From positions 1 to 64,000 of IMG/VR virus record IMGVR_UViG_3300028592_000008: 64,000 bases of DNA, one strand, 5' to 3'. Every line of letters starts with the position of its first letter. Position 1 is the first letter of the stretch. The notes beneath the pieces were generated by a model that was not told where the DNA came from, did not search any database, and was given only the letters and a program-made list of their open reading frames with translations. Below are positions 10,956-28,603 of this stretch, one piece after another. The DNA is from a virus. Position numbers and translations under genes: made by a program.

Positions 10956-11147
10956 ATGCTGGTTCTGAGCCGCAAAGAGGGTGAGTCGATCATCATTGGG
11001 GATGGGATCGAGGTGAAGGTCGTCGACATCGACGGCAACAAGGTGCGGATCGGCATCGAGGCGCCGCGGAACGTATCGGTTCACCGCAAGGAGGTTTACG
11101 ACGCGATGAAGCGTGAAGCGAAGGAAGGAGGCAGCCGTGGGGCTTGA
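10956..11147 (+). CDS. csrA: Carbon storage regulator CsrA (RNA-binding translational regulator)
   Basis: [48 protein letters not shown] is a textbook CsrA. Confidence 0.95.
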
Positions 11148-12027
11148 AACTGGGATTAGCTGGACCGACTACACATGGAACCCATGGCAGGGCTGCACGA
11201 AGATCAGTCCGGCGTGCGCGAATTGCTATATGTTCCCGGGGATGTGGCGATGGGGCAAGGACCCGACAGTTGTCCGCCGCTCGTCTCCACAGACTTTCAA
11301 TCTGCCGCTCAAGCGGAAGTCGGCGAAGAACGGCGGCGGATACGCGATGGAGCCGGGCAAGTGGGTGTTCACCTGCTCGTGGTCCGACTGGTTCCACAAG
11401 GACGCGGACCCTTGGAGGGACGAAGCCTGGGCAATCGTGAGGGCTCGCCCGGACCTGAACTTCCAGATCGTCACGAAGCGGACGGAGCGGATCAAGGACT
11501 GTCTGCCATCCGATTGGGGCGACGGATACCGGAACGTCATCCTGATCGCGACTGTCGAGAATCAGGAGTTCCTCGAAAAGCGGGTTCCGGACCTGTTCTC
11601 CGTCCCGGCGTGGCGTCGCGGGTTGTCGTGCGAGCCGCTGCTGGGGCCGCTCGATTTCCACCGCAGGTGCTTTGCCGACAACTGCCAGGGAGAGTGCGGA
11701 TGGCCTTCTCCGTTCGATCTCCTTGGAGACAACAAAAACGGATCCGGCGCACTGATCGACTGGATCATCACCGGCGGGGAATCCGGAACAGGGGCGCGGC
11801 CATCGAATCCTCAGTGGTTCCGGGACGTCCGGGATCAGTGCTTCTTGGCGGGAGTTCCGTTCCACCACAAGCAAAACGGCGAGTGGGTGTCTGTCAGTGA
11901 GGTCGAGGGACCCGGGGAGCACTTCGCCTTCTCGGATCACAGGGTTGTGCGGCGGGTAGGTGTCGCCGCGGCTGGGAGAACGATCGACGGAAAGGTCTAT
12001 GATGCCTTCCCGTCCATGGGAGCATAG
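11137..12027 (+). CDS. DUF5131 / phage Gp37-Gp68 family radical-SAM-like protein
   Basis: [53 protein letters not shown]. Confidence 0.9.
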
Positions 12028-12031
12028 GGAA

Positions 12032-12559
12032 ATGCGTCGTTTAAGCTGCGCGATTCTCCCGGACCTGTCGCGGGTCCGGGAGGTGACGGTGTTCTACAGG
12101 ATGCGTTGGCGTTTCGTGCGGCCGGGGGACGAAGTCCTGCTGGTCGACCGGATCGCCAATCGATCGGGAGGCGAGGCGAAAGGCCTGTCGGTAGTCCGGG
12201 TCGTTTCGATCCGCGAGACCCGGCTTATCGAGATGACGGCGGCGGCTGACGGCGGCCGGGCGGAGACGGACAGGTGCGGCTTTTGGGGGAAGACCCCGCA
12301 GGAGTTCGTGGACGCGATGTGTGACGCGCACAAGACCGATCCGTGGTACATGATCTCCCGGATCGAGGTGGAGCACGCGGAGCCGCTTCCGGAGCCGAAC
12401 TTCCGCGGGTATCTCCCGATGGACGTTCACCCCGCCCCGGAAGGTCGCGTCGCCAAGGCGATGCGAAACGGGATCGCCGCCATGACGAAGTCTCCCAACG
12501 AGGATGACATCGAACGCTGGGATGACGACGGCGGCCCGGCAGTGGAGACCGAGCAGTGA
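12032..12559 (+). CDS. ASCH/PUA-like domain protein
   Basis: Pattern T...R..W....PGD.V; VRVVSIRETRL; GF...TPQEFV...ISRIEVE. Confidence 0.55.
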   Translation: MRRLSCAILPDLSRVREVTVFYRMRWRFVRPGDEVLLVDRIANRSGGEAKGLSVVRVVSIRETRLIEMTAAADGGRAETDRCGFWGKTPQEFVDAMCDAHKTDPWYMISRIEVEHAEPLPEPNFRGYLPMDVHPAPEGRVAKAMRNGIAAMTKSPNEDDIERWDDDGGPAVETEQ

Positions 12560-13059
12560 TCTTGCTGGCAATCGACCCCGGGAGCGCGGAGACCGCCTGG
12601 GTCAAAATCGAGCGTGAGACCGGGCGGATCTGCGGGAAGGAGATCGTCGAAAACGACGCCTTCCGGCTGCAGCTCTGGCGGCGCGAAATCGACGGGTACG
12701 ACCGGATCGCGCTCGAGTATTTCCAGCCGCGCGGGATGCCGACCGCTGCGGAGGAGATGGACACGATCTTCTGGTCCGGCCGCTTCATCGAGGCGGCGGG
12801 CCGGGACTGGGACAAGGTGTTCCGGATGCAGGAGAAAATCTCCATCTGCGGGCACGGCTCGGCGACGGACTCCAACATCTCCACGGCGCTCCGGGATATG
12901 TACGGGGGGCAGAAGGAGGCCAAGGGGCTCAAGGCGAGCCCGGGGCCGCTGTACGGGTTCAAGGACGACCTGTGGGCGGCCCTGGCAATCGGAGTGACGT
13001 GGTTTCGTCGGAACGGGAGCCCGGAGTGGGTTCCGAACCTCGAGGAGATTCGGAAGTGA
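12556..13059 (+). CDS. RuvC-like Holliday junction resolvase / RNase H-fold nuclease
   Basis: ILLAIDPG, IALE and DDLWAALAIG motifs. Confidence 0.75.
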   Translation: MILLAIDPGSAETAWVKIERETGRICGKEIVENDAFRLQLWRREIDGYDRIALEYFQPRGMPTAAEEMDTIFWSGRFIEAAGRDWDKVFRMQEKISICGHGSATDSNISTALRDMYGGQKEAKGLKASPGPLYGFKDDLWAALAIGVTWFRRNGSPEWVPNLEEIRK

Positions 13060-13475
13060 ACTACACGTTGGACGCTCTGGACAGCCAGGCAATCACGATG
13101 ATCTCGCGCGGCGTCGGGACCCTCCGGATTTCGGAGGCTGCGAAGCGGAAGATCATGGCGGCTTGGAAACCGCCGGATCACATGCGGCATCCGCTTATCT
13201 CATTCGAGGGGCTGCTCGGCCTGGGGATCGACGTCACGGTGGACCCGTCGATGCCGATCTTCGTGAAGTCGAACCGCCTGCGTTCCCGGGACCGCTTCAC
13301 GCTCTTCGAGGCCGCGGACGCCGATTGGGCGGTGGCGGCCGGGCTCGCGGAGTGGGAGCTGGACGAGGTCCATGCCGTCTGGTTCGACGAGCTGCGTCTT
13401 CAGTTCTACCGCTCGCACTACAACTTCGGGGTGAAGTTGATGGAGCCGCGGGGATTCATCCGGGGGCTCGCGTAG
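13056..13475 (+). CDS. Hypothetical protein
   Basis: GTGA overlap with the upstream gene. Confidence 0.6.
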   Translation: MNYTLDALDSQAITMISRGVGTLRISEAAKRKIMAAWKPPDHMRHPLISFEGLLGLGIDVTVDPSMPIFVKSNRLRSRDRFTLFEAADADWAVAAGLAEWELDEVHAVWFDELRLQFYRSHYNFGVKLMEPRGFIRGLA

Positions 13476-13476
13476 C

Positions 13477-13695
13477 GTGAAGCAGTTTCAGATCAGCGAG
13501 GAAGACCTGCAGTCCCTCGAGCACATTCTCCCGGCCGTGCTGTGGAAGCTGACCTGCAGGCCAGATGCGGACCCGCAGGATCGCGTCCACTTCCGTCAGG
13601 TCCGGGGCATCCTGACAAACGTGCGATGGGGATACTGGCCCCCGGAGAACGTAGAGATCATTCCGCCAGGGGAGACTGACCATGCTGCTGAGTGA
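13477..13695 (+). CDS. Hypothetical protein
   Basis: 72-aa ORF filling the operon gap. Confidence 0.55.
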   Translation: MKQFQISEEDLQSLEHILPAVLWKLTCRPDADPQDRVHFRQVRGILTNVRWGYWPPENVEIIPPGETDHAAE

Positions 13696-14428
13696 GTTTC
13701 AGGCGTTGCCATTTCAGGACGCCGCACTGAATTGTGGGCAGAAGATCCAGATCATCCGCGGGGGCAATCGGTCCTCGAAGAGCCTGGTCGCTGCCGTGAA
13801 GGTGGCCGCCGCGCTGACCGGGGAGACGGTGAAGCTGTCCAACGGGGCGGGCGTGGCGTACACCCCGGCGAAGCGGGTCTACTGCGCCGGGAAGGACTTC
13901 GAGCACGTCTCGGAGAAAATGGCGGCGCCGCTGTTCGGGTCGGCCATCGGAATCGGGGAGGCCCCGGGACTGATCGCCGCCGACAAGATCGAGATGGTTT
14001 CGTGGTTCAACAAGACGCTTGGCTGGCCGGCGATGGTCCGGCTGAAGAGCGGTGCCGAGGTTGTTTTCGGACAGGGATTCAGCAATCACGGGTTCCGCTT
14101 CGCGATCATCTGGGCAGACGAGAAGGTGCTCAGCGACGGGCGGCTCCTGTCGATGGTTGCGCAGGCCGACGTCTTCATCTGGTCGACCTGGCCGGACTCG
14201 ACGAACGACGAGCTCCGGAGGCTGTGCAAGCTGGCGGCGGAGACCGGCGCGGAGTTCGTCTTCCGGATGCAGGACAACACCACGATCTCCGAAGAGAAGC
14301 GGGCGTCGATCCTGGAGACGTGGGGAGCATTGGGGTCGCAGCATTTGCAGGCCCGGAACCTCGGCGAATTCCCGGCCGATCCGCCGGCCGAAGAGAAAGC
14401 TCTTGACACGGAGAAGCCGGCCCCCTAG
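13682..14428 (+). CDS. Truncated paralog of terminase large subunit (ATPase domain only)
   Basis: Colinear with TerL 24023-25774: IRGGNRSSKS vs IRGGNRSGKS; IIWADEK vs IIWVDEK; WSTWPDSTN vs WSTWPTSTN; WGALGSQHLQARNLGEF vs WQALGAGHVQARNEGEF. Ends before the nuclease domain. Confidence 0.85.
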   Translation: MLLSEFQALPFQDAALNCGQKIQIIRGGNRSSKSLVAAVKVAAALTGETVKLSNGAGVAYTPAKRVYCAGKDFEHVSEKMAAPLFGSAIGIGEAPGLIAADKIEMVSWFNKTLGWPAMVRLKSGAEVVFGQGFSNHGFRFAIIWADEKVLSDGRLLSMVAQADVFIWSTWPDSTNDELRRLCKLAAETGAEFVFRMQDNTTISEEKRASILETWGALGSQHLQARNLGEFPADPPAEEKALDTEKPAP

Positions 14429-14431
14429 TGT
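14403..14431 (+). promoter_or_regulatory. Sigma70-type promoter
   Basis: TTGACA, 17-bp spacer, TAGTGT. Confidence 0.65.
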
Positions 14432-14437
14432 TCCGCC

Positions 14438-15000
14438 GGTGACGCCTTCCTGTCCTCAACCGGGAAGTCGAAAATTTGATTTTGCATTTCGTAGGCTTCG
14501 GCCTGCGGAAATAAGCCCGTGTGGTTAGGCGAGTTGAGGCGCCTTCCACGCGGGCTATTTTCGTGGACTGAGGCGAATGAACGAGCCAAAGCTCTCATAG
14601 CGCCCATTTGCAGTTCTGGTTAAGCACGAACCCCTGGGTGCGACCGGAGCCAAGCATATGGGCACCTTAACGCCCAAGGTATGTCGGGGACGTGAACGCC
14701 GGGAAAGGGTTATTTGCTGCCCGTGTCGATTGCAGGCGAAGGTCGCCGCGAAGCACGGGGTAAGGCGTAATTCCCCGGAGACATGATGTGGCGATGGTAG
14801 CCTAAACCTCGCTGGGCAATATCACCTTCCACCTTGTGTGGACACCGCATTAAGCGGAGCAACCGTCGTGAGGAATCAGGCTGAGTTCGCAGCGACGTTA
14901 AACAAATGCGGGGAGTAGCCCCACAAGCCATCACGCGCCGGGACCAAACCCTTAGCGCTCAAGCCGGGACCGATGGACGCTGTTCTTTTGTTGGACGAAC
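14438..15000 (+). ncRNA. Candidate large structured non-coding RNA
   Basis: No credible ORF; lower GC than the flanks; consecutive nested stems including a C(UUCG)G hairpin at 14490-14507; directly downstream of a promoter. Confidence 0.5.
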
Positions 15001-15024
15001 ACTGGACTCTTTGAGGATTATGAC

Positions 15025-15456
15025 ATGCCACGTTACGAGCTTATCAATCCGAGCGACTACTACACCTTCGAAGCCCGGGACATCCTGATCGCCGGCGCGG
15101 TGACGATGTTCCTGAGTTCCAACTTCGGGGCGGTGCAGATCCACCCGGAGGGGGACGAGCGGACGCCGATGCTGTTCGGCTGGGAGGAGTGGTTCAAGTC
15201 GAAGGGGGTCGACCTGCATGATCCGAAGTGGACCCGGGAGAACCTGCAGGCGATCGCGGAGGCTTTCGAGTCGTTCGTCATCGGGGACCGGGCGGAGTAC
15301 ATGGCTGGGCTCGAGGCGACCCTGGAGGCAGACCGGCCGGCGTTCATCGAGAAGTGGAACAACGAGAAGCGGAGCAGCGTGAACGACATCGGGAAGGCCG
15401 CGCGGAGCTACGCGACTCAGTGTCGGAAGATGCTTGAGGCTGTGGCCGCGGGCTGA
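15025..15456 (+). CDS. Hypothetical protein
   Basis: GAGGA RBS; 143 aa. Confidence 0.7.
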   Translation: MPRYELINPSDYYTFEARDILIAGAVTMFLSSNFGAVQIHPEGDERTPMLFGWEEWFKSKGVDLHDPKWTRENLQAIAEAFESFVIGDRAEYMAGLEATLEADRPAFIEKWNNEKRSSVNDIGKAARSYATQCRKMLEAVAAG

Positions 15457-15491
15457 GTCGCCCGGGATCGAACACTGGACGCTGGGAGTCG

Positions 15492-15800
15492 ATGATGGTG
15501 ACGCCGATCGGCCCGGATGACGTGGTGGCAAACCGCGGGGTGACGACGATCCCGCAGGCGGTGATCCTCGCCTTCAACCGTCTGATCGAGGGGCGGTGGG
15601 ACGGGGTGCAGGCCCGGTTCACGCGGTCGGATGCGGTCGGAGCGATCTGGGCGGCGACGGGTCTGTGCGAGCAGGAGATGTTGCACGCCCGGCATCTGGA
15701 CATTGAGCCGCTGTACCGGGACGCTGGGTGGAAGGTGACGTACGAGGCCCCGGAGATCGGGGAGACGTGGGAAGCCCATTACGTTTTCGAGGTGCGGTGA
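15492..15800 (+). CDS. Hypothetical phage protein
   Basis: GGGAG RBS; LDIEPLYRDAGWKVTY segment. Confidence 0.65.
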   Translation: MMVTPIGPDDVVANRGVTTIPQAVILAFNRLIEGRWDGVQARFTRSDAVGAIWAATGLCEQEMLHARHLDIEPLYRDAGWKVTYEAPEIGETWEAHYVFEVR

Positions 15801-16210
15801 TGGACCCGGTGTCTTTTCAGATCGCTCTGCTGTTCGTCGTCCTGGGCGTCTGCGCGGCCGCGGTGTTGCGGAAGATGCAGGAGACCAGGGAGTTCGAGTT
15901 GCGGATGTTTCAGATCGCCGAGCGGTGGGACAATCGCTGCGACTATCGATGGCAGGACCGGGTCGAGATTGACCCTGTGAAGGCCGAGGAGGCGCACGAC
16001 AAAATCGTCCGAGATCACAAGGCGTATTTCATCGAACTCGAGTGGCGCCGTCTCGGCGCGGGAGGATCCAGTGGTGGCGAGAAACCAGAAGACTCAGCCG
16101 GACCCGGTGGCGGCGATGATCGGGCCGATGCGTCGGGCGGCCCTGGCGGGGACGTATGCCGGGAAGGTGCCGACTCCGTACTTCATGTCGTGCCGCCGGG
16201 TGATTCCTGA
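15800..16210 (+). CDS. Membrane protein, hypothetical
   Basis: TGATG coupling; N-terminal TM helix. Confidence 0.55.
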   Translation: MDPVSFQIALLFVVLGVCAAAVLRKMQETREFELRMFQIAERWDNRCDYRWQDRVEIDPVKAEEAHDKIVRDHKAYFIELEWRRLGAGGSSGGEKPEDSAGPGGGDDRADASGGPGGDVCREGADSVLHVVPPGDS

Positions 16211-16634
16211 GCTCGGGGTGAGCGTCTGCTTCACCCGGGACGTCGGGTATCACACGAGCGGCTGGTGGAAGAACCCGGACTACGAACGCTGCTTCCACCT
16301 GAGCCTCGCGTTCTACCATCCGTACTCGAACAACGAGCCACGGCCGCGGGACTACGCGATCACCGATCGGTTCATCCGCGGGTTGTACGGGGACGCCCGG
16401 CGGATGATCTGGTGCGAGCCTCCGTACTCTGAGAAGGGGAAGCGGGAGGACATCTGGCACTACCGGCTGTTCTGCGACGAGGGGTGGCAGCCGATCAAGC
16501 CTCGCGGCGAGGTGTACGAGAAGGAGCTGACGGAGGCCGGCTGGAAGTCCTACAGCGACGTGCAGGCGGACGCACTGAAGAAGTCGCTCGCCGAACTGAA
16601 CGGCTACATGCAGGGAGGCCGCGGCCGACCATGA
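16071..16634 (+). CDS. Hypothetical phage protein
   Basis: GGAGGA RBS; GYHTSGWWKNPDYERCFHLSL segment. Confidence 0.7.
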   Translation: MVARNQKTQPDPVAAMIGPMRRAALAGTYAGKVPTPYFMSCRRVIPELGVSVCFTRDVGYHTSGWWKNPDYERCFHLSLAFYHPYSNNEPRPRDYAITDRFIRGLYGDARRMIWCEPPYSEKGKREDIWHYRLFCDEGWQPIKPRGEVYEKELTEAGWKSYSDVQADALKKSLAELNGYMQGGRGRP

Positions 16635-16906
16635 TCGAGGAAGGGGAAGTCCAGCCCGGCGTCCTGCGTCGCTGCGAAGCGTGCGGTCACCGGGACGACT
16701 ACCCGGCCTACGCGGATCGGTGCATCGCCTGCAGCCATCGGTTCGGGGAAGCGATCTCCCGGGTCCCGGCGAAGGAATTCATGATCCTCTGGCACTGCGG
16801 GCCCTGCGATAAGTTTCACGAGTCCGACTACCGTTTCGACGCCCGGTGTTCGTGCGGGAAGACGGGGATCATTGGGCGGGCGGAGCTGCCCGGGAGAGAG
16901 CCTTGA
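16631..16906 (+). CDS. Cys-rich zinc-ribbon protein
   Basis: Three CxxC pairs plus CxC; ATGA overlap. Confidence 0.6.
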   Translation: MIEEGEVQPGVLRRCEACGHRDDYPAYADRCIACSHRFGEAISRVPAKEFMILWHCGPCDKFHESDYRFDARCSCGKTGIIGRAELPGREP

Positions 16907-17283
16907 GTCTTTGCCCAGCGTTTGTTCGCGCCGAGGACGGCAATCTGTACCGGAACCCGACGATCCGCGGGGAGGACTGGTACGTCTGCTTCGATGATGA
17001 CGATCCGCCGGAGTTGGTCGTCTTCGCGCCGACGTTCGAGCGAGCGTGGCGGAGGATGTGGACGCTGAAGAGGCAGCACGGATTCATCGGGTCGTTTCAG
17101 GAGTACTGGCACCCGGTCAGATATTCCTGGAGAAACGGCTGCCCGAAGAATCTGTCCGCATGGAGCCGGTTCTTCGGGTTGGCGGCGCCAATCCCTGTTC
17201 CTACTGACAGGGGCCCGGTGACAAACCTGAAGCGGGAGTACGTCCTGTACGATCCTGTGGCCGCTGGCCGAGAGGTGTGGTGA
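16903..17283 (+). CDS. Hypothetical protein
   Basis: TTGA overlap with the upstream gene. Confidence 0.5.
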   Translation: MSLCPAFVRAEDGNLYRNPTIRGEDWYVCFDDDDPPELVVFAPTFERAWRRMWTLKRQHGFIGSFQEYWHPVRYSWRNGCPKNLSAWSRFFGLAAPIPVPTDRGPVTNLKREYVLYDPVAAGREVW

Positions 17284-17817: not shown

Positions 17818-19155
17818 ATGAAAACTCTGACCTACCATTGTTCCCGGGAACCGAGGCCGCAGGACGTCGAGACTGCCTACCTCGAGGCTCGAGGCCTGGC
17901 GGGTCCGGCGAGTTTCTGGGACAGGGCTGGCGGGAAGAAGGGTCCGTTCACCCAGCGGCGCGATGGCGGCCGGCTGATGGCTGATCTTGGGCCCGGCGAC
18001 CATGTCGTCTTTCGGTCGATCGGCTCGGCGTTCGGAAGCCTGGCTGACTGGCGGGACACGGTGCGGCTGATGCTGGTCCGCGGGGCGACGGTCCATTTCA
18101 TCGGCGAGGGGCTGGTCATCTCCCGGGAATCTTCGTGGGTCGTGGGGACCGTGCTCGACGTCTACCTCCGCTTCGTGGCCGAGTTCGCGTCGGCGGACCG
18201 GCGGCGGCCGACGGAACCGTGCTCACAGCGGAAGCGGCGGTGTTCCGGAGGTGAAGTGGAGATTCCGGCCGGGAAGTTCGACGAGCTGTTGCGCCAGCAG
18301 AAGTGGGGCGACTGCCGGTTCCCGGCGACGACCGGGACACGGCACTCATACGCCATGCTGGAGGAGCCGCCGCGTTTCCCGGGAAACGATTTCCGGTACT
18401 GGCGCGAGGTGCGATACCTCCACACGCAGTACCCGTTCATCGAGCGTCCGGAGGGGAAGCGGCTGGTGCTGCGGGCCAAGCCAGGCGACGCGATGTTCGT
18501 CTGCGCCGGAAAGGCCTTCCGTTCTGTCGAAGACATGGTCTCCGCTTCCCGGACGCTTGCCGCCATTGGTGTCTCGGTGACGATCACGGACTTCGGGATC
18601 ACGACGCTGGCCGAGGAGGGGCGCGCCCTGATGAACCTGCTGGCGGTGTACGACATCTTGGCCCGGCGGCGGAAGTCGGAAGAACGCAAAGAACGCGGGC
18701 AGCGGAAGCAGATAACGATGGAGCTCCCGTTCTACCTGAAACGGCGGCCGAACGGGCGGGTCGTCATCAACGAGTTCCGGCTGTGGGGCGTCCTGCAGGT
18801 TCTCAATCGTCGGGAAATGAGGGGGATCGAGCTCGAGGACTGGATGGAAGAGCAGGAGGCCGAGCACTTCGGGGACCGGAAGCTGCCCCGCCACACGATC
18901 AACCGGCGGGCCAGGTATCGCTGGCACCCGGATCACGGCACGCTGCTTCGGCACCCGGGGCGCGGATACTGCCGGTCGCGATTCTGGCACAAGGCCCGGA
19001 TCAACGACATCCGTCGCGCGGGGCTGGAGCCGGTGAAGACCATGCTCGCCCAATACGGAATTCGTTTCCCGGGAAACGATATGCCCCGGCCACCGAAGGC
19101 CAGCCGGCGGAAGCGGGGAGTCACGAGCGGAACTGATTCCAGTCAGCCAGAGTGA
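17818..19155 (+). CDS. Protein with two tandem degenerate serine-recombinase (resolvase-like) domains
   Basis: Two copies of PF..R..G.RL...L.PGD.........AF.S..D.......L...G..V; the second is followed by EGRALMNLLAVY...ERK (helix E). The catalytic YxRVS and DRLxR motifs are absent. Confidence 0.6.
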   Translation: MKTLTYHCSREPRPQDVETAYLEARGLAGPASFWDRAGGKKGPFTQRRDGGRLMADLGPGDHVVFRSIGSAFGSLADWRDTVRLMLVRGATVHFIGEGLVISRESSWVVGTVLDVYLRFVAEFASADRRRPTEPCSQRKRRCSGGEVEIPAGKFDELLRQQKWGDCRFPATTGTRHSYAMLEEPPRFPGNDFRYWREVRYLHTQYPFIERPEGKRLVLRAKPGDAMFVCAGKAFRSVEDMVSASRTLAAIGVSVTITDFGITTLAEEGRALMNLLAVYDILARRRKSEERKERGQRKQITMELPFYLKRRPNGRVVINEFRLWGVLQVLNRREMRGIELEDWMEEQEAEHFGDRKLPRHTINRRARYRWHPDHGTLLRHPGRGYCRSRFWHKARINDIRRAGLEPVKTMLAQYGIRFPGNDMPRPPKASRRKRGVTSGTDSSQPE

Positions 19156-20797: not shown

Positions 20798-21955
20798 ATG
20801 GCGAACTTGGTGCCGCAGACGACTGACGAAGCGACGGAAGTCGCGCGGGCAACAGCTCCGACCTTCATCAAGGGGTTTGCGGACCTCACGATGCGGAAGC
20901 GGATTTGGATGGCCCTCCTGCGGAAGTACGGTCGGGTCCTGTTCAACCAGGGCGGTCACACGACCGTCTGGGGTGTCCGGGTCCGGGAGGCGACGCCGCA
21001 CACGATCGGGGCGAACCCGACGTTCGACTTCAACTCCATCAACCGGAACGAGCAGCTCTCGCTCGACTGGCGTGGCTACGGGCACGAAGGCGTGCTGTGG
21101 GTGAAGGACAAGCTGATGAACGGCCAGGCTGGCGCGTCGCAGCTTTGGAACATGCTGAACGACCGCACGGAAACGCTCGCGGAAGAGTTCGCCCGCATGT
21201 TCAACCGCGAGATTTACGTTGACGGCGAAGCGGCCGGCAACGGCGAGCGGTTCCACGGTCGCGGGACGTTCCTGAACTACAAGGCCGGGGTGACCTCGGA
21301 CGACCGCGTCGCTCTTCCGGACGGCAGTTACGCCGGCCTGTCGATCGAGCTCGGCGGCCTCGGCGGCTCCTGCACCAATGCGATCTCGGCCGGCGAGAAG
21401 CCGAACACCGACCTCGGGGCCGACTGGCCGGAAGGTCAGGCGACGGCGGACTTCGACGCGACGAGCCCGCTGATCCTGAACATCTCGTCGGATCGCTGGA
21501 CGCCGGACGGCGGCACGACCTGGCGGGACAACAACGAGGCGATTCTCTCGTACACCAACGAGATCCAGTCGGCTCGCGGCGCCCGGGAATCCCGGACGGC
21601 AGGTGAGGCTCCGATCCTCAACCTGATGACGGCGAAGATGAAGAACGAGTTCGAGATGGGACAGCGCGGGCGGTTCCAGATCAACCTGCAGATGCAGGAG
21701 ATGATCGACCTCGGATTCCCGGACACGTACCGCTACGAAGGTGCGGTGATCGCGGCGGACTACGAATGCCCGCACGGCGAAATGCACCAGCTTTCCCCGG
21801 GCACGATGGAGTACGCGGCGCTGACCGAGGACTACTGGACCTTCGAAGGTCCGACGTACCTCCCCGGGCAGATGAAGTGGATCTGGCTGCTGTACACCTA
21901 CGGCAACTTCCGCTTCCAGCCCAAGTGTGAGGCGTTCGGCAAGAGCATCGCCTGA
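20798..21955 (+). CDS. Major capsid protein
   Basis: 385 aa, strong GAGGAG RBS, position, HK97-like features (EIYVDG...G..F.G; C-terminal YTYGNF). Confidence 0.75.
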   Translation: MANLVPQTTDEATEVARATAPTFIKGFADLTMRKRIWMALLRKYGRVLFNQGGHTTVWGVRVREATPHTIGANPTFDFNSINRNEQLSLDWRGYGHEGVLWVKDKLMNGQAGASQLWNMLNDRTETLAEEFARMFNREIYVDGEAAGNGERFHGRGTFLNYKAGVTSDDRVALPDGSYAGLSIELGGLGGSCTNAISAGEKPNTDLGADWPEGQATADFDATSPLILNISSDRWTPDGGTTWRDNNEAILSYTNEIQSARGARESRTAGEAPILNLMTAKMKNEFEMGQRGRFQINLQMQEMIDLGFPDTYRYEGAVIAADYECPHGEMHQLSPGTMEYAALTEDYWTFEGPTYLPGQMKWIWLLYTYGNFRFQPKCEAFGKSIA

Positions 21956-23377: not shown

Positions 23378-23391
23378 CATTGGGTGACACC

Positions 23392-24042
23392 ATGCCGCGG
23401 ACGGTCTACGAAACTCCGACGAAGCGATGCCAAGCCTGTCAGCGGATGTTGACGGTTCACTGCTTCAAGCCGGCGACGGCGGTCTACTGTGAGGGCTGCA
23501 CGGAGACCGTACAGCCGATCGCGGTGAAGCTGGCCGAGGAGAAGGTCGGGGCGGTCGCGATCAGCCTGGCGGACTCCCTGCAGCGCACAGTCGACGCCAG
23601 TCAGCCGGACATGGAACAGATCGTCCGGCTGACGATGAGGGCCATGGGCGGCCCGGATGGCATCGTGGGCATCGTCTCCCGGCAGATCGCGGACCTCGAG
23701 GGGCGGCTGATCAACGGGAAGATCGTCAGCTACGAAGAGGCGGTCCGACTGAACGAGGGAAAGACGAAAGACCGGAAGACGTTGCTCGCGTACCTGAAGC
23801 TGTTCACGGCGATGGTCGCGAAGAACGACGAGGCGAAGGCGGACGAGCGGAAGCGGACCGCCGGGCTGAATGTCGTCGAGATGGGGAACCGCCTGCTCGA
23901 CTTCTGCTGGAAGCAGATCAACGGGGACAAGTCGTTCCGCGAGCGGCTGATCCGGCTGCTGGTGTCGAAGTTCCGGGACGACGTCGCCCGGGCGATGAAC
24001 ACGATCGAGACGGAGGCGGTCGGTGGGACAGCTCAACCTTGA
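23392..24042 (+). CDS. Putative terminase small subunit (N-terminal Zn finger)
   Basis: CQAC...CEGC plus a helical body; overlaps the TerL start. Confidence 0.45.
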   Translation: MPRTVYETPTKRCQACQRMLTVHCFKPATAVYCEGCTETVQPIAVKLAEEKVGAVAISLADSLQRTVDASQPDMEQIVRLTMRAMGGPDGIVGIVSRQIADLEGRLINGKIVSYEEAVRLNEGKTKDRKTLLAYLKLFTAMVAKNDEAKADERKRTAGLNVVEMGNRLLDFCWKQINGDKSFRERLIRLLVSKFRDDVARAMNTIETEAVGGTAQP

Positions 24043-25774
24043 GGAGACGGACTACGTACCGTACTCCGAAGACGACCTGCAGTGGATCGCCCAATGGGCG
24101 GCCGAAGAGTCGGACGCGATCAAGCTCTTCCGGCCGATGCCCCCGGAGTTCATGTCGCAGGAGGACGTGCTCCGCGCGGAGTGTCTGCACAAGCTGATCC
24201 GCGGCGGAAATCGTAGTGGAAAATCCACGATCGCGGCGGTCATGTTCGCCGCGGCGGCCCGGGACATGCCGATCACGACCTGGAGCGGGGAGGAGATCCA
24301 CGTCCGGCGGCCGTGGCAGCGCGGGAAGCCGCTGCTGATGTGGGTCGTGGGCTACGATTGGGACCATATCGGCGACACGATTTACCGGCTCCTGTGCGAG
24401 CCGAATCACTCGCTGAAGATGATCCGGGACCTCGAGACGGGGGTCCTTCGCGCGTTCAAGCCGTGGGACCCGTCCGACGCCGCGCGGGAGGACGAGACCG
24501 AGCCCTGCCCTCCGCTGATCCCCGGGCACGAGATCGAGAGGATCGTCTGGAAGAATGCGGGCGCGCATATCTTCGACCAGATCCGGCTCAGGAACGGCAC
24601 CGTCATTCACGGTCACAGCTCGAAGGAGGCCAAGGCAGGGGACCCGGTCGACATCATCTGGGTCGACGAAAAGGTGGAGTACGAGATCAACGTCGCCGAG
24701 TGGCAGGCGCGTCTCGGGGACAAGCGCGGGCAGTTCTGGTGGAGCACCTGGCCGACCTCCACGAACACCGCGCTGCGGTCCATGTCACGAAAGGCGAAGT
24801 CGGACGACGTCGAGATCCGGGAGGGAAAGCGGAAGCGGAGGACGGTGCAGGAATGGGTTTTCAAGATGTACAAAAACCCGTACATGCCCGCCGAGTCCAA
24901 ACAGGACTTGCTCGAGAACTGGCAGGCCCTCGGCGCCGGGCACGTCCAGGCTCGAAACGAGGGGGAGTTCGTCGACGAGGGGGACCGCGCGTATCCGATG
25001 TTCAACGAGGACACCTGCGCGGCGATCGTGCATGGGGACCTCGAGGACGTGATCTCCCGGATCCTGCGGAAGCGGAATGGGGAGCCGCCGAGCGATTGGG
25101 CCCGGTTCATGATGCTCGACCCCGGGACGACGCGACCGGCCCTGCTCTTCGGGGCGATCCCGCCGCCGGCACTCGGGGACTGGCGAGTCATCTACCAGGA
25201 GATCATCGCCCCGGGGCACGACGCATTCCGGCTGATGAAGCTGGCGGAGCCGTTCTTCCAGAACTACTCGTTTCAGACGTTCGTCATCGACATGCAGGCT
25301 GGCCGGAAGACGGGCGAAGGCCACCGGATCAGCAACGCCGAGAACTACTCGAACGCCATGCGGAAGTACGGAATCCGCTCGGAGAAGACCGGGTTCGGGT
25401 TCGTCCCCGGGTCGCCGGACATCAATGCCCGGCGCGGCATCATCCAGTCGTGGATGCACGTCGGAGCGAGCGGCCTGGCGAAACTGCGGATCGTGAAGGA
25501 GCGGTGCAAGATCCTTGTCCACGAGCTCAGTACGGTCAAAACCAAGGTGACGCAGGCTGGCGCGGAGAAGATCGACGGCCGGGAACACGACGCGACGGAC
25601 ACGCTCGAATACTTCGGCTCGATCGACCCGCAGTGGGAACCTCCTGTTCACGTAGAGCGGCAGGTGCTAAAAAATCCTGCGGAAGTGCTCAGGGAATACC
25701 TTGAGACTCTGCGTCCCTCGGAACGGCCGAAGAGCAGCGGAAGCGTCTTCGGCGCATGCGGAAATGGAAGGTGA
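24023..25774 (+). CDS. terL: Terminase large subunit
   Basis: Walker A GGNRSGKS, Walker B IIWVDE, nuclease MLDPG and C-terminal HDATDTLEY. Confidence 0.9.
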   Translation: MGQLNLEETDYVPYSEDDLQWIAQWAAEESDAIKLFRPMPPEFMSQEDVLRAECLHKLIRGGNRSGKSTIAAVMFAAAARDMPITTWSGEEIHVRRPWQRGKPLLMWVVGYDWDHIGDTIYRLLCEPNHSLKMIRDLETGVLRAFKPWDPSDAAREDETEPCPPLIPGHEIERIVWKNAGAHIFDQIRLRNGTVIHGHSSKEAKAGDPVDIIWVDEKVEYEINVAEWQARLGDKRGQFWWSTWPTSTNTALRSMSRKAKSDDVEIREGKRKRRTVQEWVFKMYKNPYMPAESKQDLLENWQALGAGHVQARNEGEFVDEGDRAYPMFNEDTCAAIVHGDLEDVISRILRKRNGEPPSDWARFMMLDPGTTRPALLFGAIPPPALGDWRVIYQEIIAPGHDAFRLMKLAEPFFQNYSFQTFVIDMQAGRKTGEGHRISNAENYSNAMRKYGIRSEKTGFGFVPGSPDINARRGIIQSWMHVGASGLAKLRIVKERCKILVHELSTVKTKVTQAGAEKIDGREHDATDTLEYFGSIDPQWEPPVHVERQVLKNPAEVLREYLETLRPSERPKSSGSVFGACGNGR

Positions 25775-26257: not shown

Positions 26258-28603
26258 ATGGACATTTTGCAGAATCGGCAGCCGAACGTGGTGAAGCGGC
26301 TCGCGGCGCTTTGGTCGACAAAGATCAAGGCGGGCGTCGAGGCGCGGAAGACGTTCGACAACATCGCCGACCAGTGCCGCATGTTCATGTACGCCCCCAA
26401 CGGCTTTCTCTGGGACGAGGGGTATCGCCGCCGCTTCAAGATCGAGGCGGAGGTGCCGAAGTTCCAGGTCACCATCAACAAGCTGTTCGAGCTTGTCGCG
26501 ATCGTAGGCCCATACATCTATTGGGATTACGCGGACCGCAAGGTGTCGTCACTGGTCCCGGTGGACATCGTCGAAGGGGCTTTCGGCGAGGGGATGGACC
26601 AGCAGGTCGAGCAACTCCGGATGGAGCAGCAGTTCCAAGCGAACCGCATGGAACAGGCCTGCAAGCTGTTCGAGAAGGTTCTGAATCACACGCAGCGGAG
26701 CCAGCGGAACGGGGGGCTGATTTCGGAAGGCCGGCAGATCGTCCAGGACTTCCTCATGACCGGCTGGGGGATTGCCTGGCCGGAGGTGACGAGCAGTCCC
26801 GGGCTCCCGCGGAAGATCACCGGCTGCTACCGCATGGACCCGAAGGAGATGGTCGTCGATCCGGACTGTTCGGATCCGACCCTTGAGAGCGCGGGCTGGG
26901 TCGGGCGGCGACGGATCACGCCGCACTACCAGCTCGAGCGGATGTTCGGCCGGAAGCCCGGGTCGCTGAAGCAGTACGCCACGGTTCAGGGCACGGACGC
27001 GATGGCGGATCAGGCCTCGCGCAAGGGCCGGAAGTTCAGCCAGTCGTTCGATCACGTCGTCTGGTTCGAGATTTACAGCAAGTGCGGGATCGGGTTCAAC
27101 CTGTCGAATTCGATCCGCGACGAGCGGGGGAAGTTCGAGGAGCCGCTCATGTCGCCGGTTGAGCAGATGCTCGACGACGATGTGCAGGACTTCGCCTACG
27201 TCTGCGTGATCCCCGGGCACGACGTCATCCTCAACCTCGAGAAACCGCTCCCGGAGATGACGAGCGAGGAGGTGCAGGACGCCTTCCGCTGGCCGTTCCA
27301 GAGCTACAAGGCGGACCGCTGGCCGTTCGCGAAGTACGCCTGCTACTCGGATGGCACGGGGCCGTATCCGATCGCCCCGCTGGCCCCAGCGCTCGGCCAC
27401 CTGATCTGCATCTCCGTCCTGACCGCGGCCTACGTCGAGAAGGCGTGGACGAACCGGAAGGACATCATCGCGGTTCTCGACACGTACTACAAAGACTTGA
27501 CCGAGGCGCTCAAGTCGAACAACAGCGAGACGATCGTCAAACTGTCGAAGGAACTCGGGAAGCCGATCAACGAGCTGATCCAGTTCCTCCAGCGCCCGGA
27601 TCAGAATTACGACATCCTCAAGGCGCTCGAGTGGGAGACCCAGAACTTCCGGGAATCCTCGGGGCTGTACGAGGTTCTGTACGCCGCGTCCGCCGGGATC
27701 GAGCGTTCCGCGGAGGGGACGAAGCAGAAGGCCAAGTCCGCGTCGATCCGCCCGGACGATATGTCCGCGCAGTTCGGCCGGTTCATGGGCGAGCTTGCCT
27801 ACCTGGAGCTCCTGCTGATGTGGGAAAAGCTGGACCCGGACGACGTGGTCGACATTCTGGGTGTCGGCGGGGACATGCTCTGGCAGGAGTTCGTGCTCTC
27901 CCTGCAGGAGACCGAGGTCTACCGGATGTGCCGGGTGGAGGTGTCGGCGACGGACATGCGGCGCCCGGACCGGGACAAGGAGCTCGCGGATCTGAAGGAA
28001 GTCATCCCGGTCATCATGCCGATGCTGCAGCTTGCCGCGCAGTCCGGGACGCCGGAGGGGATCGAGCCAATCAACGTGCTGATGCGTCAGTTTGCGAAGG
28101 CACTCAACTGGAAGGAGCCGATCCAGTTCGCTCCGATCCAGCCGCCGGCCCCTCCGCCGGAAGTCGCGGAGCAGCAGACCCGGATGACCGAGGCCGAGAT
28201 CGCGAAGACGGAAGCCGACGCCGCTCTCAAGGGTGCGCAGGCTCAGGCCGCGGGTGCGGACGGCGAGGGCGAGATGGCGATGCGAGAGCAGGAACTCGAG
28301 CACGACCGGATCCGAATGGACATGGAACTCGAGAAGGGTCAGCAGGAGATGGCGCTCGAGGGGGCGAAGGGCGAGCAGCAGATGGCCCTCGATGGAGCCA
28401 AGGCCCGGCAGTCGATGATGCTCGCCGCCGCGCAGGGGCGTCAGCAACTCGACCTGACCAGCGCGAAGGGGGCGCTGGACCTGAAGAGTGCTATCCTGAA
28501 GTCGCAGCTCGCTCTCCGGCAGCAGTCGGAAATGGGCGACGCGAAGGTGGCGACGGCAAAGAAGATGGCCGCCGCCAAGCCGAAGACTTCAACGCAGGGG
28601 TGA
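26258..28603 (+). CDS. Portal protein (P22-like, long helical C-terminus)
   Basis: 781 aa after TerL; VTINKL, VDPD, ESSGL...G...SAE motifs; Gln/Ala/Glu-rich tail. Confidence 0.8.
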   Translation: MDILQNRQPNVVKRLAALWSTKIKAGVEARKTFDNIADQCRMFMYAPNGFLWDEGYRRRFKIEAEVPKFQVTINKLFELVAIVGPYIYWDYADRKVSSLVPVDIVEGAFGEGMDQQVEQLRMEQQFQANRMEQACKLFEKVLNHTQRSQRNGGLISEGRQIVQDFLMTGWGIAWPEVTSSPGLPRKITGCYRMDPKEMVVDPDCSDPTLESAGWVGRRRITPHYQLERMFGRKPGSLKQYATVQGTDAMADQASRKGRKFSQSFDHVVWFEIYSKCGIGFNLSNSIRDERGKFEEPLMSPVEQMLDDDVQDFAYVCVIPGHDVILNLEKPLPEMTSEEVQDAFRWPFQSYKADRWPFAKYACYSDGTGPYPIAPLAPALGHLICISVLTAAYVEKAWTNRKDIIAVLDTYYKDLTEALKSNNSETIVKLSKELGKPINELIQFLQRPDQNYDILKALEWETQNFRESSGLYEVLYAASAGIERSAEGTKQKAKSASIRPDDMSAQFGRFMGELAYLELLLMWEKLDPDDVVDILGVGGDMLWQEFVLSLQETEVYRMCRVEVSATDMRRPDRDKELADLKEVIPVIMPMLQLAAQSGTPEGIEPINVLMRQFAKALNWKEPIQFAPIQPPAPPPEVAEQQTRMTEAEIAKTEADAALKGAQAQAAGADGEGEMAMREQELEHDRIRMDMELEKGQQEMALEGAKGEQQMALDGAKARQSMMLAAAQGRQQLDLTSAKGALDLKSAILKSQLALRQQSEMGDAKVATAKKMAAAKPKTSTQG

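Follow-up and report, generated by a model that had tools for sequence, protein, structure and literature searches.

No protein of tailed phages is more conserved than the large terminase, which is also a main target of bacterial pattern-recognition immunity. Passages of one study (PMC13601566) describe how this recognition works: EcAvs2 was activated by the ATPase domain alone for five of the five terminases tested, and for all three Upx homologs tested the ATPase domain alone sufficed, also when the aspartates of Walker B and of the nuclease were mutated. According to the same passages, EcAvs2 binds the ATPase domain and reaches the terminase-bound ATP through a bridging ATP, and SeAvs3 reads active-site features. 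They also describe T4 vs.8, an uncharacterised stand-alone protein that is homologous to the T4 terminase ATPase domain, carries both Walker motifs (A and B) and is toxic together with EcAvs2; there the authors assign vs.8 no definite function and suggest that stand-alone activators of this kind are possible anti-defence proteins (PMC13601566). For the large terminase (TerL) of D6E, passages of a second study report that the isolated ATPase domain forms pentamers and that TerL-type ATPases hydrolyse poorly as monomers (PMC5727402). Beyond vs.8, our literature search found no description of a terminase that acts as a decoy or is dominant-negative, nor of a paralog of a terminase. Here we describe P0002, a stand-alone paralog of the TerL ATPase domain, 248 amino acids long and encoded at positions 13682..14428 (+ strand) of the window, i.e., the first 64,000 bases of the 72,427-base viral record IMGVR_UViG_3300028592_000008, which derives from an uncultured soil phage and is rated complete by CheckV. 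Comparison with its relatives indicates that P0002 is a maintained, fast-evolving accessory protein that probably works by binding and not as a motor.

The ATPase-domain paralog and what it lacks

The same phage encodes a full-length TerL of 583 amino acids with both ATPase and nuclease domains (24023..25774, + strand; phrog_2, E 4.7e-9), which served as the reference; it has 141 homologs at E ≤ 1e-5, and its AlphaFold2 (AF2) model reached a predicted local distance difference test score (pLDDT) of 83.8. A search of the whole record found no TerL-type genes other than this one and that of P0002. In BLASTP, residues 23–230 of P0002 aligned with residues 57–316 of TerL, with 78 of 261 positions identical (30%; E 2e-21 for the pair). 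The AF2 model of P0002, built from a 61-row alignment, had a pLDDT of 93.4 and a predicted template modelling score (pTM) of 0.90, and its best Foldseek matches in the PDB were all large terminases, namely D6E, the T4 gp17 ATPase domain, Sf6 gp2 and P74-26. With VIA-align, residues 7–234 of the model were superposed on residues 13–234 of the D6E TerL chain (Z 19.0; root mean square deviation (rmsd) 2.5 Å over 195 residues), and residues 1–237 on residues 11–260 of the isolated P74-26 TerL ATPase domain (Z 18.8; rmsd 2.7 Å over 203 residues). As judged from these superpositions, P0002 covers a terminase ATPase domain in full, with the lid, and contains nothing beyond it. The C-terminal RNase H-like nuclease domain of TerL is absent, and the stop codon of P0002 falls 18 residues past the linker, where the nuclease domain would begin. 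A tblastn search of positions 12000–17000 with four TerLs found no similarity to the C-terminal (nuclease) part of TerL at E < 1; a pseudogene or frameshifted gene with a downstream nuclease remnant was rejected on this ground, as no nuclease-like sequence lies near P0002.

Family libraries added little to this comparison. P0002 had no hit to Pfam PF03237 (Terminase_6N; gathering threshold 22 bits) at E ≤ 10, a failure that says little because the real TerL of the phage also falls below the threshold, with 14.9 bits. The match of P0002 to phrog_2 had an E value of 0.033, and NCBIfam and Pfam held no family for P0002 or for the short relatives P0123, P0124, P0135 and P0127 described below. Sequence searches of the PDB gave nothing useful: alignment A2 matched only HflX (E 0.68), and alignment A1 matched T4 gp17 over 45 residues (E 0.039). 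The ESM Atlas clusters nearest to P0002 carry PF03237. In the same resource there are many viral clusters with representatives of 225–323 amino acids whose members mostly have Terminase_6N only, and some of these may be fragments.

The reading frame begins with ATG, and a Shine-Dalgarno-like GGGGAG (13669..13674, + strand), a putative ribosome-binding site, stands 7 nucleotides 5′ of it. The GC content of the window is 64.8%. At third codon positions (GC3) the value was 0.871 for P0002 and 0.868 for TerL, and the codon-usage scores were −3.69 and −3.71, respectively, as against −4.41 and −4.30 for two long overlapping alternative open reading frames (ORFs). Because P0002 matches TerL in both measures and the alternative ORFs score lower, its frame is coding and has the composition of a real gene.

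Motifs were compared in alignment A4, which contains 55 full-length TerLs and six short proteins. P0002 retains the adenine-binding glutamine Q12. In its Walker A motif or P-loop, GGNRSSKS (G27–S34; 13760..13783, + strand), the P-loop arginine R30, the lysine K33 and S34 are kept, and S32 takes the place of the usual glycine; this column holds G in 52 and S in 3 of the 55 TerLs. Also kept are D146 and the catalytic E147 of the Walker B strand IIWADE (14105..14122, + strand; the strand comprises residues 140–146 in the model), the C-motif WSTWP (W167–P171; 14180..14194, + strand) and the lid/linker motif QARNLGEF (Q223–F230; 14348..14371, + strand), the last of these being aligned in BLASTP as well as in A4.

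When P0002 is laid on the TerL model, the following parts are missing: (i) TerL residues 1–30, which form two helices; (ii) residues 129–157, a hairpin with a short helix (modelled at a pLDDT of about 90) that makes up a β-hairpin insert of ~30 residues; (iii) residues 263–275; (iv) four residues at 227–230; and (v) everything after residue 320. The fourth of these gaps removes R230, an arginine in 54 of the 55 TerLs, which in the TerL model ends helix 222–232, ahead of strand 237–242, and follows E216 by 14 residues. In P0002, the segment R154–V164 (14141..14173, + strand) comprises helix α3 and the loop that leads to strand β4, this loop being four residues shorter, and in two alignments no Arg or Lys occurs between R154 and the C-motif, at or near the R230 position. 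From its place in the fold, R230 is likely to be the trans-acting finger of the TerL family; passages on D6E TerL report that hydrolysis there requires, in trans, the arginine that occupies the corresponding place in the fold (PMC5727402). The full TerL catalytic set (P-loop Gly-Lys, catalytic Glu and R230) is incomplete in P0002, with Lys and Glu kept, Gly replaced by Ser and R230 absent. Lacking the nuclease, the N-terminal helices, the hairpin insert and R230, P0002 alone almost certainly cannot serve as a packaging motor subunit.

Much of what an earlier note had read from this DNA is borne out by these results. It had described an intact 248-residue ORF with a ribosome-binding site, a nuclease-less match to the TerL ATPase half that stops just after the linker, and a Walker A motif GNRSSKS with G changed to S beside an intact Walker B WADE, and it had named alignment or modelling against TerL as the way to check the similarity; the ORF and its GGGGAG, the residues S32, D146 and E147, the BLASTP E value and the Z scores of 18–19 all agree with that description. 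The glycine-to-serine change cannot be taken as a sign of inactivation, since by itself it does not show this and serine occurs in three full TerLs.

Short relatives, descent and distribution

When 1.84 billion representatives were searched exhaustively with P0002 by HMMER, 98 hits reached E ≤ 1e-3. The best two were not terminases; they were proteins of the same size, P0123 (245 amino acids, 39% identical, E 4.7e-39) and P0124 (242 amino acids, 30–33% identical, E 7e-21), both aligned with P0002 from end to end. All three proteins have the same start and the same stop past the linker, without frame breaks. The TerL of the phage itself was only the fifth hit (E 5.3e-15), just behind a foreign TerL. 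The suggestion in the earlier note that P0002 is a copy of the phage's own terL therefore does not hold for a recent event, and P0002 is an old paralog of the TerL ATPase and not a fresh duplicate.

A second short group consists of P0135 and P0217 (300 amino acids, each with an unrelated tail of ~60 residues) and the fragment P0127. A further protein, P0188 (293 amino acids; Logan, 19.8-kb contig), matches TerL residues 10–319 and ends 6 residues past the linker. Both the helices at the N-terminus and the hairpin insert are still present in it, its P-loop reads GGCRSAKS, and it has Ala at the R230 position; P0188 may represent a gene of this kind that has been reduced less far. Eight other short hits (P0152, P0180, P0191, P0200, P0201, P0216, P0160 and P0174) appear to be pieces of TerLs that run into the ends of their contigs and were excluded from the short forms. 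The short proteins all come from short ENA or Logan contigs, which measure 2.8 kb for P0123, 3.7 kb for P0124 and at most 4.9 kb for P0135, P0219 and P0220. A word-based search with alignment A2 found only P0002, P0135, P0217 and the fragment P0218, and no further family members were found in viral contigs searched with P0002, P0123 and P0124 or in metagenome and genome contigs searched with alignment A3.

The catalytic residues set these proteins apart from terminases. The Walker A lysine and the catalytic glutamate are present in 55 of 55 full TerLs and in both P0002 and P0123, which also share the Walker B Asp-Glu, the P-loop Arg and the C-motif. The corresponding residues are L and N in P0124, R and D in P0127, and A and G in P0135 as well as in P0217, so that both are lost in four of the seven short forms. 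Those that possess both have another residue at the P-loop glycine position (S in P0002, A in P0123 and in P0188), where only 3 of the 55 TerLs have anything but Gly; at least one catalytic element is thus altered in seven of seven short forms. The motifs that define the fold are kept, namely GGNRS, the Walker B Asp, the C-motif Pro, the DN motif and the linker Arg-x-x-Gly. Catalysis would thus seem to be dispensable in the short forms as a kind, and its loss with the fold retained points to a binding role and not to a motor. Within the clade of P0002 in particular, the function would have no need of hydrolysis, because P0124 has lost both Lys and Glu and yet keeps its length and motifs.

Two kinds of tree were used to place the short forms, a quick one of 61 rows and a careful one of 41 of these rows, in which 20 full TerLs were omitted. 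In the quick tree the P0002 clade came out basal, on a long branch; this tree is not optimal, because better ones were obtained in constrained searches. In the careful tree, P0002, P0123 and P0124 form a clade (support 99/99, stem 1.16) inside a 10-row set (98/98) together with the clade of the phage's own TerL (P0001 and P0004–P0008) and P0019, and the other short clade lies beside P0109 in a different 24-row set (99/97). A second careful tree, made from a new alignment with P0188 added, again joined the P0002 clade with the own-TerL clade, in an 18-row set (99/94), with the other short clade elsewhere; P0188 has a branch of 4.68 and an unusual composition, and its placement is unsure. The end branch of P0002 is about three times longer than the median in the careful tree (1.94 vs 0.66). 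From this nesting and the long branch, P0002 descends, long ago, from a terminase of the sub-clade of its own phage's TerL and has evolved fast since. A single clade of the six short forms was not rejected with the quick tree (p value of the approximately unbiased test (p-AU) 0.785); with the careful tree its log-likelihood was lower by 15.8 units (p-AU 0.065). These tests favour two origins of the short forms without proving them.

P0002 occurs rarely and sporadically. No closer homolog turned up when 5.8 billion protein clusters were searched by words. Among 80 related viral loci, 47 had a tblastn hit to P0002, each of them inside the locus's own terL, and no second copy was found within ±10 kb; nor was one found within ±10 kb at 11 genome loci with a related TerL. 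Related whole viral records contained a single TerL-type gene in 20 of 20 cases, six of them at least 90% complete, and two extra matches in these records were pieces of intein-bearing terLs. The relatives surveyed are distant, with TerLs at most 40% identical; closer TerL relatives exist in P0004–P0008 (51–55%), of which P0006 is encoded on a 72.8-kb contig. No match to P0002 was obtained by tblastn in 50,697 GenBank phage records (E ≤ 1e-3) or in PLSDB plasmids, and TerL itself had no match among GenBank phages at 1e-5. In four sibling soil-metagenome runs, a search with positions 12500–15500 brought up only short contigs that agree with the window letter for letter, and no variants.

Several observations on the phage and its TerL family were made along the way. 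The four soil-metagenome runs with identical short contigs belong to other studies, carried out in the same year, and the phage genotype thus recurs across samples. TerLs of this family are often 700–940 amino acids long and carry the intein or homing-endonuclease domains PF14528, PF14890 and PF13403 (P0029, P0034, P0038, P0070, P0078, P0081, P0088 and P0120; records G004, G007 and G017); the phage's own TerL has no intein. Of the 11 genome contigs on which a related TerL was found, four (L084, L087, L090 and L091) were binned as Planctomycetes metagenome-assembled genomes, and the labels of the remainder are mixed (among them Porticoccaceae, Flavobacteriaceae, Chloroflexota and Parcubacteria). 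As to the host, this gives no more than a weak hint, given that binned contigs may be free phage.

The long branch of P0002 and its absence from all 20 related records would also fit a functionless remnant of an old terL duplication or recombination accident that has not yet been erased. Such a remnant would hardly present an intact frame of 248 codons whose GC3 and codon usage are the same as in TerL (the genome has 65% GC), a ribosome-binding site, a start–stop overlap with the upstream gene and a very confident AF2 model. Moreover, three clade members have the same termini at 30–39% identity and no frame breaks, features that neutral decay would not keep. We therefore consider a remnant very improbable, and P0002 appears to be maintained and not decaying. 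Its description in the earlier note as diverged but intact stands: the truncation is shared by same-length homologs at 33–39% identity.

Gene neighbourhood and candidate roles

P0002 closes a string of co-directional genes, most of which overlap. At the head of the string stands a CsrA homolog of 63 amino acids (10956–11147, + strand; PF02599, E 3.5e-27, whole profile covered), the stop region of which overlaps the gene for a DUF5131 protein (11113–12027; E 5.6e-64). These are followed by the gene for a Holliday-junction resolvase (12556..13059, + strand; phrog_1770, E 1.4e-9), and the string also includes unnamed ORFs. One of the ORFs, of 72 amino acids (13477..13695, + strand), lies directly upstream and its stop overlaps the P0002 start by 14 nucleotides, an arrangement in which translational coupling is possible; searches of family libraries found no family match for it. 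Behind P0002, at the end of the string, is a stretch of 596 nucleotides (14429..15024) with no listed ORF of at least 40 amino acids running its length. Rfam gave no match at E ≤ 1 in 13300–15200, which includes this stretch, and a promoter and terminator scan returned no promoter-like sites and two terminator-like sites (fewer than in shuffled sequences), none of them directly behind P0002. A split terminase, with the resolvase at 12556–13059 as the missing nuclease half, was considered and rejected: the protein matches phrog_1770, and its similarity to TerL is confined to a 32-residue segment at E 0.022.

From the end of P0002 to the start of terL is 9.6 kb, and P0002 lies outside the packaging module, in agreement with the distance of about 10 kb upstream of the late operon that had been given for it. 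A candidate small-terminase gene is located at 23380–24042, and the portal gene (26258–28603; phrog_156) is downstream of terL. Upstream of terL, and not after the portal gene, an ORF at 20798–21955 (+ strand) has a partial major-head-protein match (phrog_9953, E 8.9e-9, residues 13–159). A 445-residue protein (17818–19155, + strand) has a partial match to the resolvase N-terminal domain PF00239 (E 2.2e-9, residues 209–295); apart from it, no integrase-like gene was found among the ORFs scanned.

The company of P0002 in this tight string, with CsrA, the DUF5131 protein and the Holliday-junction resolvase, raises the question of whether it is an independent and active enzyme, i.e., a DNA-dependent ATPase or translocase that acts in replication, recombination or DNA processing with its operon neighbours. 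In its favour, P0002 and P0123 both have the lysine of Walker A, the Asp-Glu pair of Walker B, the arginine of the P-loop and the C-motif. Speaking against it, P0124 has lost Lys and Glu at the same length and with the fold-defining motifs kept, the likely trans-finger is absent from P0002, and TerL-type ATPases are poor hydrolysers as monomers, as passages on D6E state (PMC5727402). On balance we rate an independent ATPase as quite unlikely.

The explanation that we favour, with a rough probability of 0.3, is that P0002 resembles a terminase and, by joining or capping assemblies of TerL ATPases, damps or times its own phage's packaging or blocks that of a related rival phage. P0002 would bind as a look-alike, with a P-loop pocket that may still hold nucleotide, and would enter or cap the assembly as a subunit unable to activate its neighbour and devoid of the nuclease or portal-binding half; the outcome would be that packaging by the own terminase is damped or timed, or that packaging by a related rival phage is blocked. 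A dominant-negative subunit was among the proposals of the earlier note, and that proposal gains to the extent that the loss of catalytic residues in the relatives fits the binding, non-motor role that it needs. A complex prediction for TerL residues 1–325 with P0002 scored 0.00; as it was run without controls, it is not evidence either way.

A number of points weigh against this explanation. Poisoning one's own motor needs tight control, and none is seen. The ATP site of P0002 is whole in cis (Q12, R30, K33, S34, D146, E147 and the C-motif), so that an active enzyme with a task of its own is conceivable; the glycine-to-serine change is also found in three of the 55 TerLs, which presumably work. 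The equivalence of R230 with the D6E finger is drawn from spacing and secondary structure, not from superposition. In P0123 and P0124 the R230 position depends on the alignment, being deleted in A4 and aligned to Arg in an L-INS-i alignment, and the loss of R230 is accordingly claimed for P0002 only. Lastly, the sporadic distribution and fast evolution of P0002 fit a host-conflict gene at least as well.

Fast evolution, sporadic occurrence, an accessory position and recurrent origin are typical traits of conflict genes, and P0002 has them all. As an immune-conflict protein, it would engage host sensors of the terminase ATPase (Avs1–3, Upx), either as an antagonist that occupies the sensor without oligomerisation or as another anti-defence protein that merely resembles TerL, and the scattered loss of active-site residues would be an escape from sensors that read the ATP-bound active site. 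The passages cited above lend this some substance, with the contact of EcAvs2 to ATPase-bound ATP, the reading of the active site by SeAvs3 and the suggested anti-defence role of vs.8-like activators (PMC13601566); the catalytic residues read by such sensors are those altered in four of the seven short forms. Against this, the only experimental precedent in these passages is triggering and not protection (EcAvs2, three Upx homologs and vs.8; PMC13601566), P0002 keeps K33, D146 and E147 and probably still presents an ATP-bound site, and no terminase decoy was found in the literature. The idea of a decoy for Avs sensors, also put forward in the earlier note, is weakened in this way: given that an ATPase domain alone activates EcAvs2 and three Upx homologs and that vs.8 is toxic (PMC13601566), a P0002-like protein is as likely to be a trigger as a shield. 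We hold a role in immune conflict to be unlikely for P0002, and the remaining probability goes to functions that we have not thought of.

A broader proposition, which we likewise regard as doubtful, is that nuclease-less terminase-ATPase look-alikes are convergent, recurrently invented phage conflict proteins that antagonise Avs1–3 or Upx or poison the motors of competitors. Were it true, these look-alikes would mimic the one protein that no tailed phage can do without making, and the scattered loss of the P-loop lysine, the catalytic glutamate or the arginine finger would reflect both release from catalysis and escape from sensors.

Comparison with known terminases and terminase-like proteins

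Set beside TerL, both that of its own phage and the solved proteins of D6E (5OE8/5OEA), P74-26 (4ZNK), Sf6 (4IEE) and T4 (gp17, 2O0H), P0002 has the same additional-strand catalytic-glutamate (ASCE) fold including the lid (Z 16–19) and the same order of motifs, from the Q-motif through the P-loop with its arginine, the Walker B Asp-Glu and the C-motif to the lid/linker. It differs in having no nuclease domain, no N-terminal helices, no 129–157 hairpin and no R230, in its location outside the packaging module, and in a branch ~3 times the median.

With the gp16 type of phi29, P0002 has in common that both are terminase-type ATPases without a working nuclease. gp16 is the only packaging ATPase of its phage and keeps a C-terminal domain, which is vestigial and nuclease-like (PMC7672431), whereas the phage of P0002 has a complete TerL and P0002 ends at the linker.

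Another parallel is T4 vs.8. Both are separate small phage proteins homologous to the terminase ATPase domain of their own lineage, and both are taxon-restricted, as far as passages of PMC13601566 describe vs.8; like vs.8, P0002 is the product of a separate gene, consists of a TerL-ATPase-like domain only and shares its genome with a complete terL. The two derive from different TerL lineages. The origin of P0002 is likely to be independent of that of vs.8, because the tblastn search with P0002 matched none of the GenBank phage records at E ≤ 1e-3. P0002 thus adds to the stand-alone copies of the TerL ATPase exemplified by T4-like vs.8 a small family from an uncultured soil-phage lineage, one with useful traits: it is nested with the TerL of its own phage, a second short clade is found elsewhere in the TerL family, and each of the short members compared departs in one catalytic element or more, with the fold kept.

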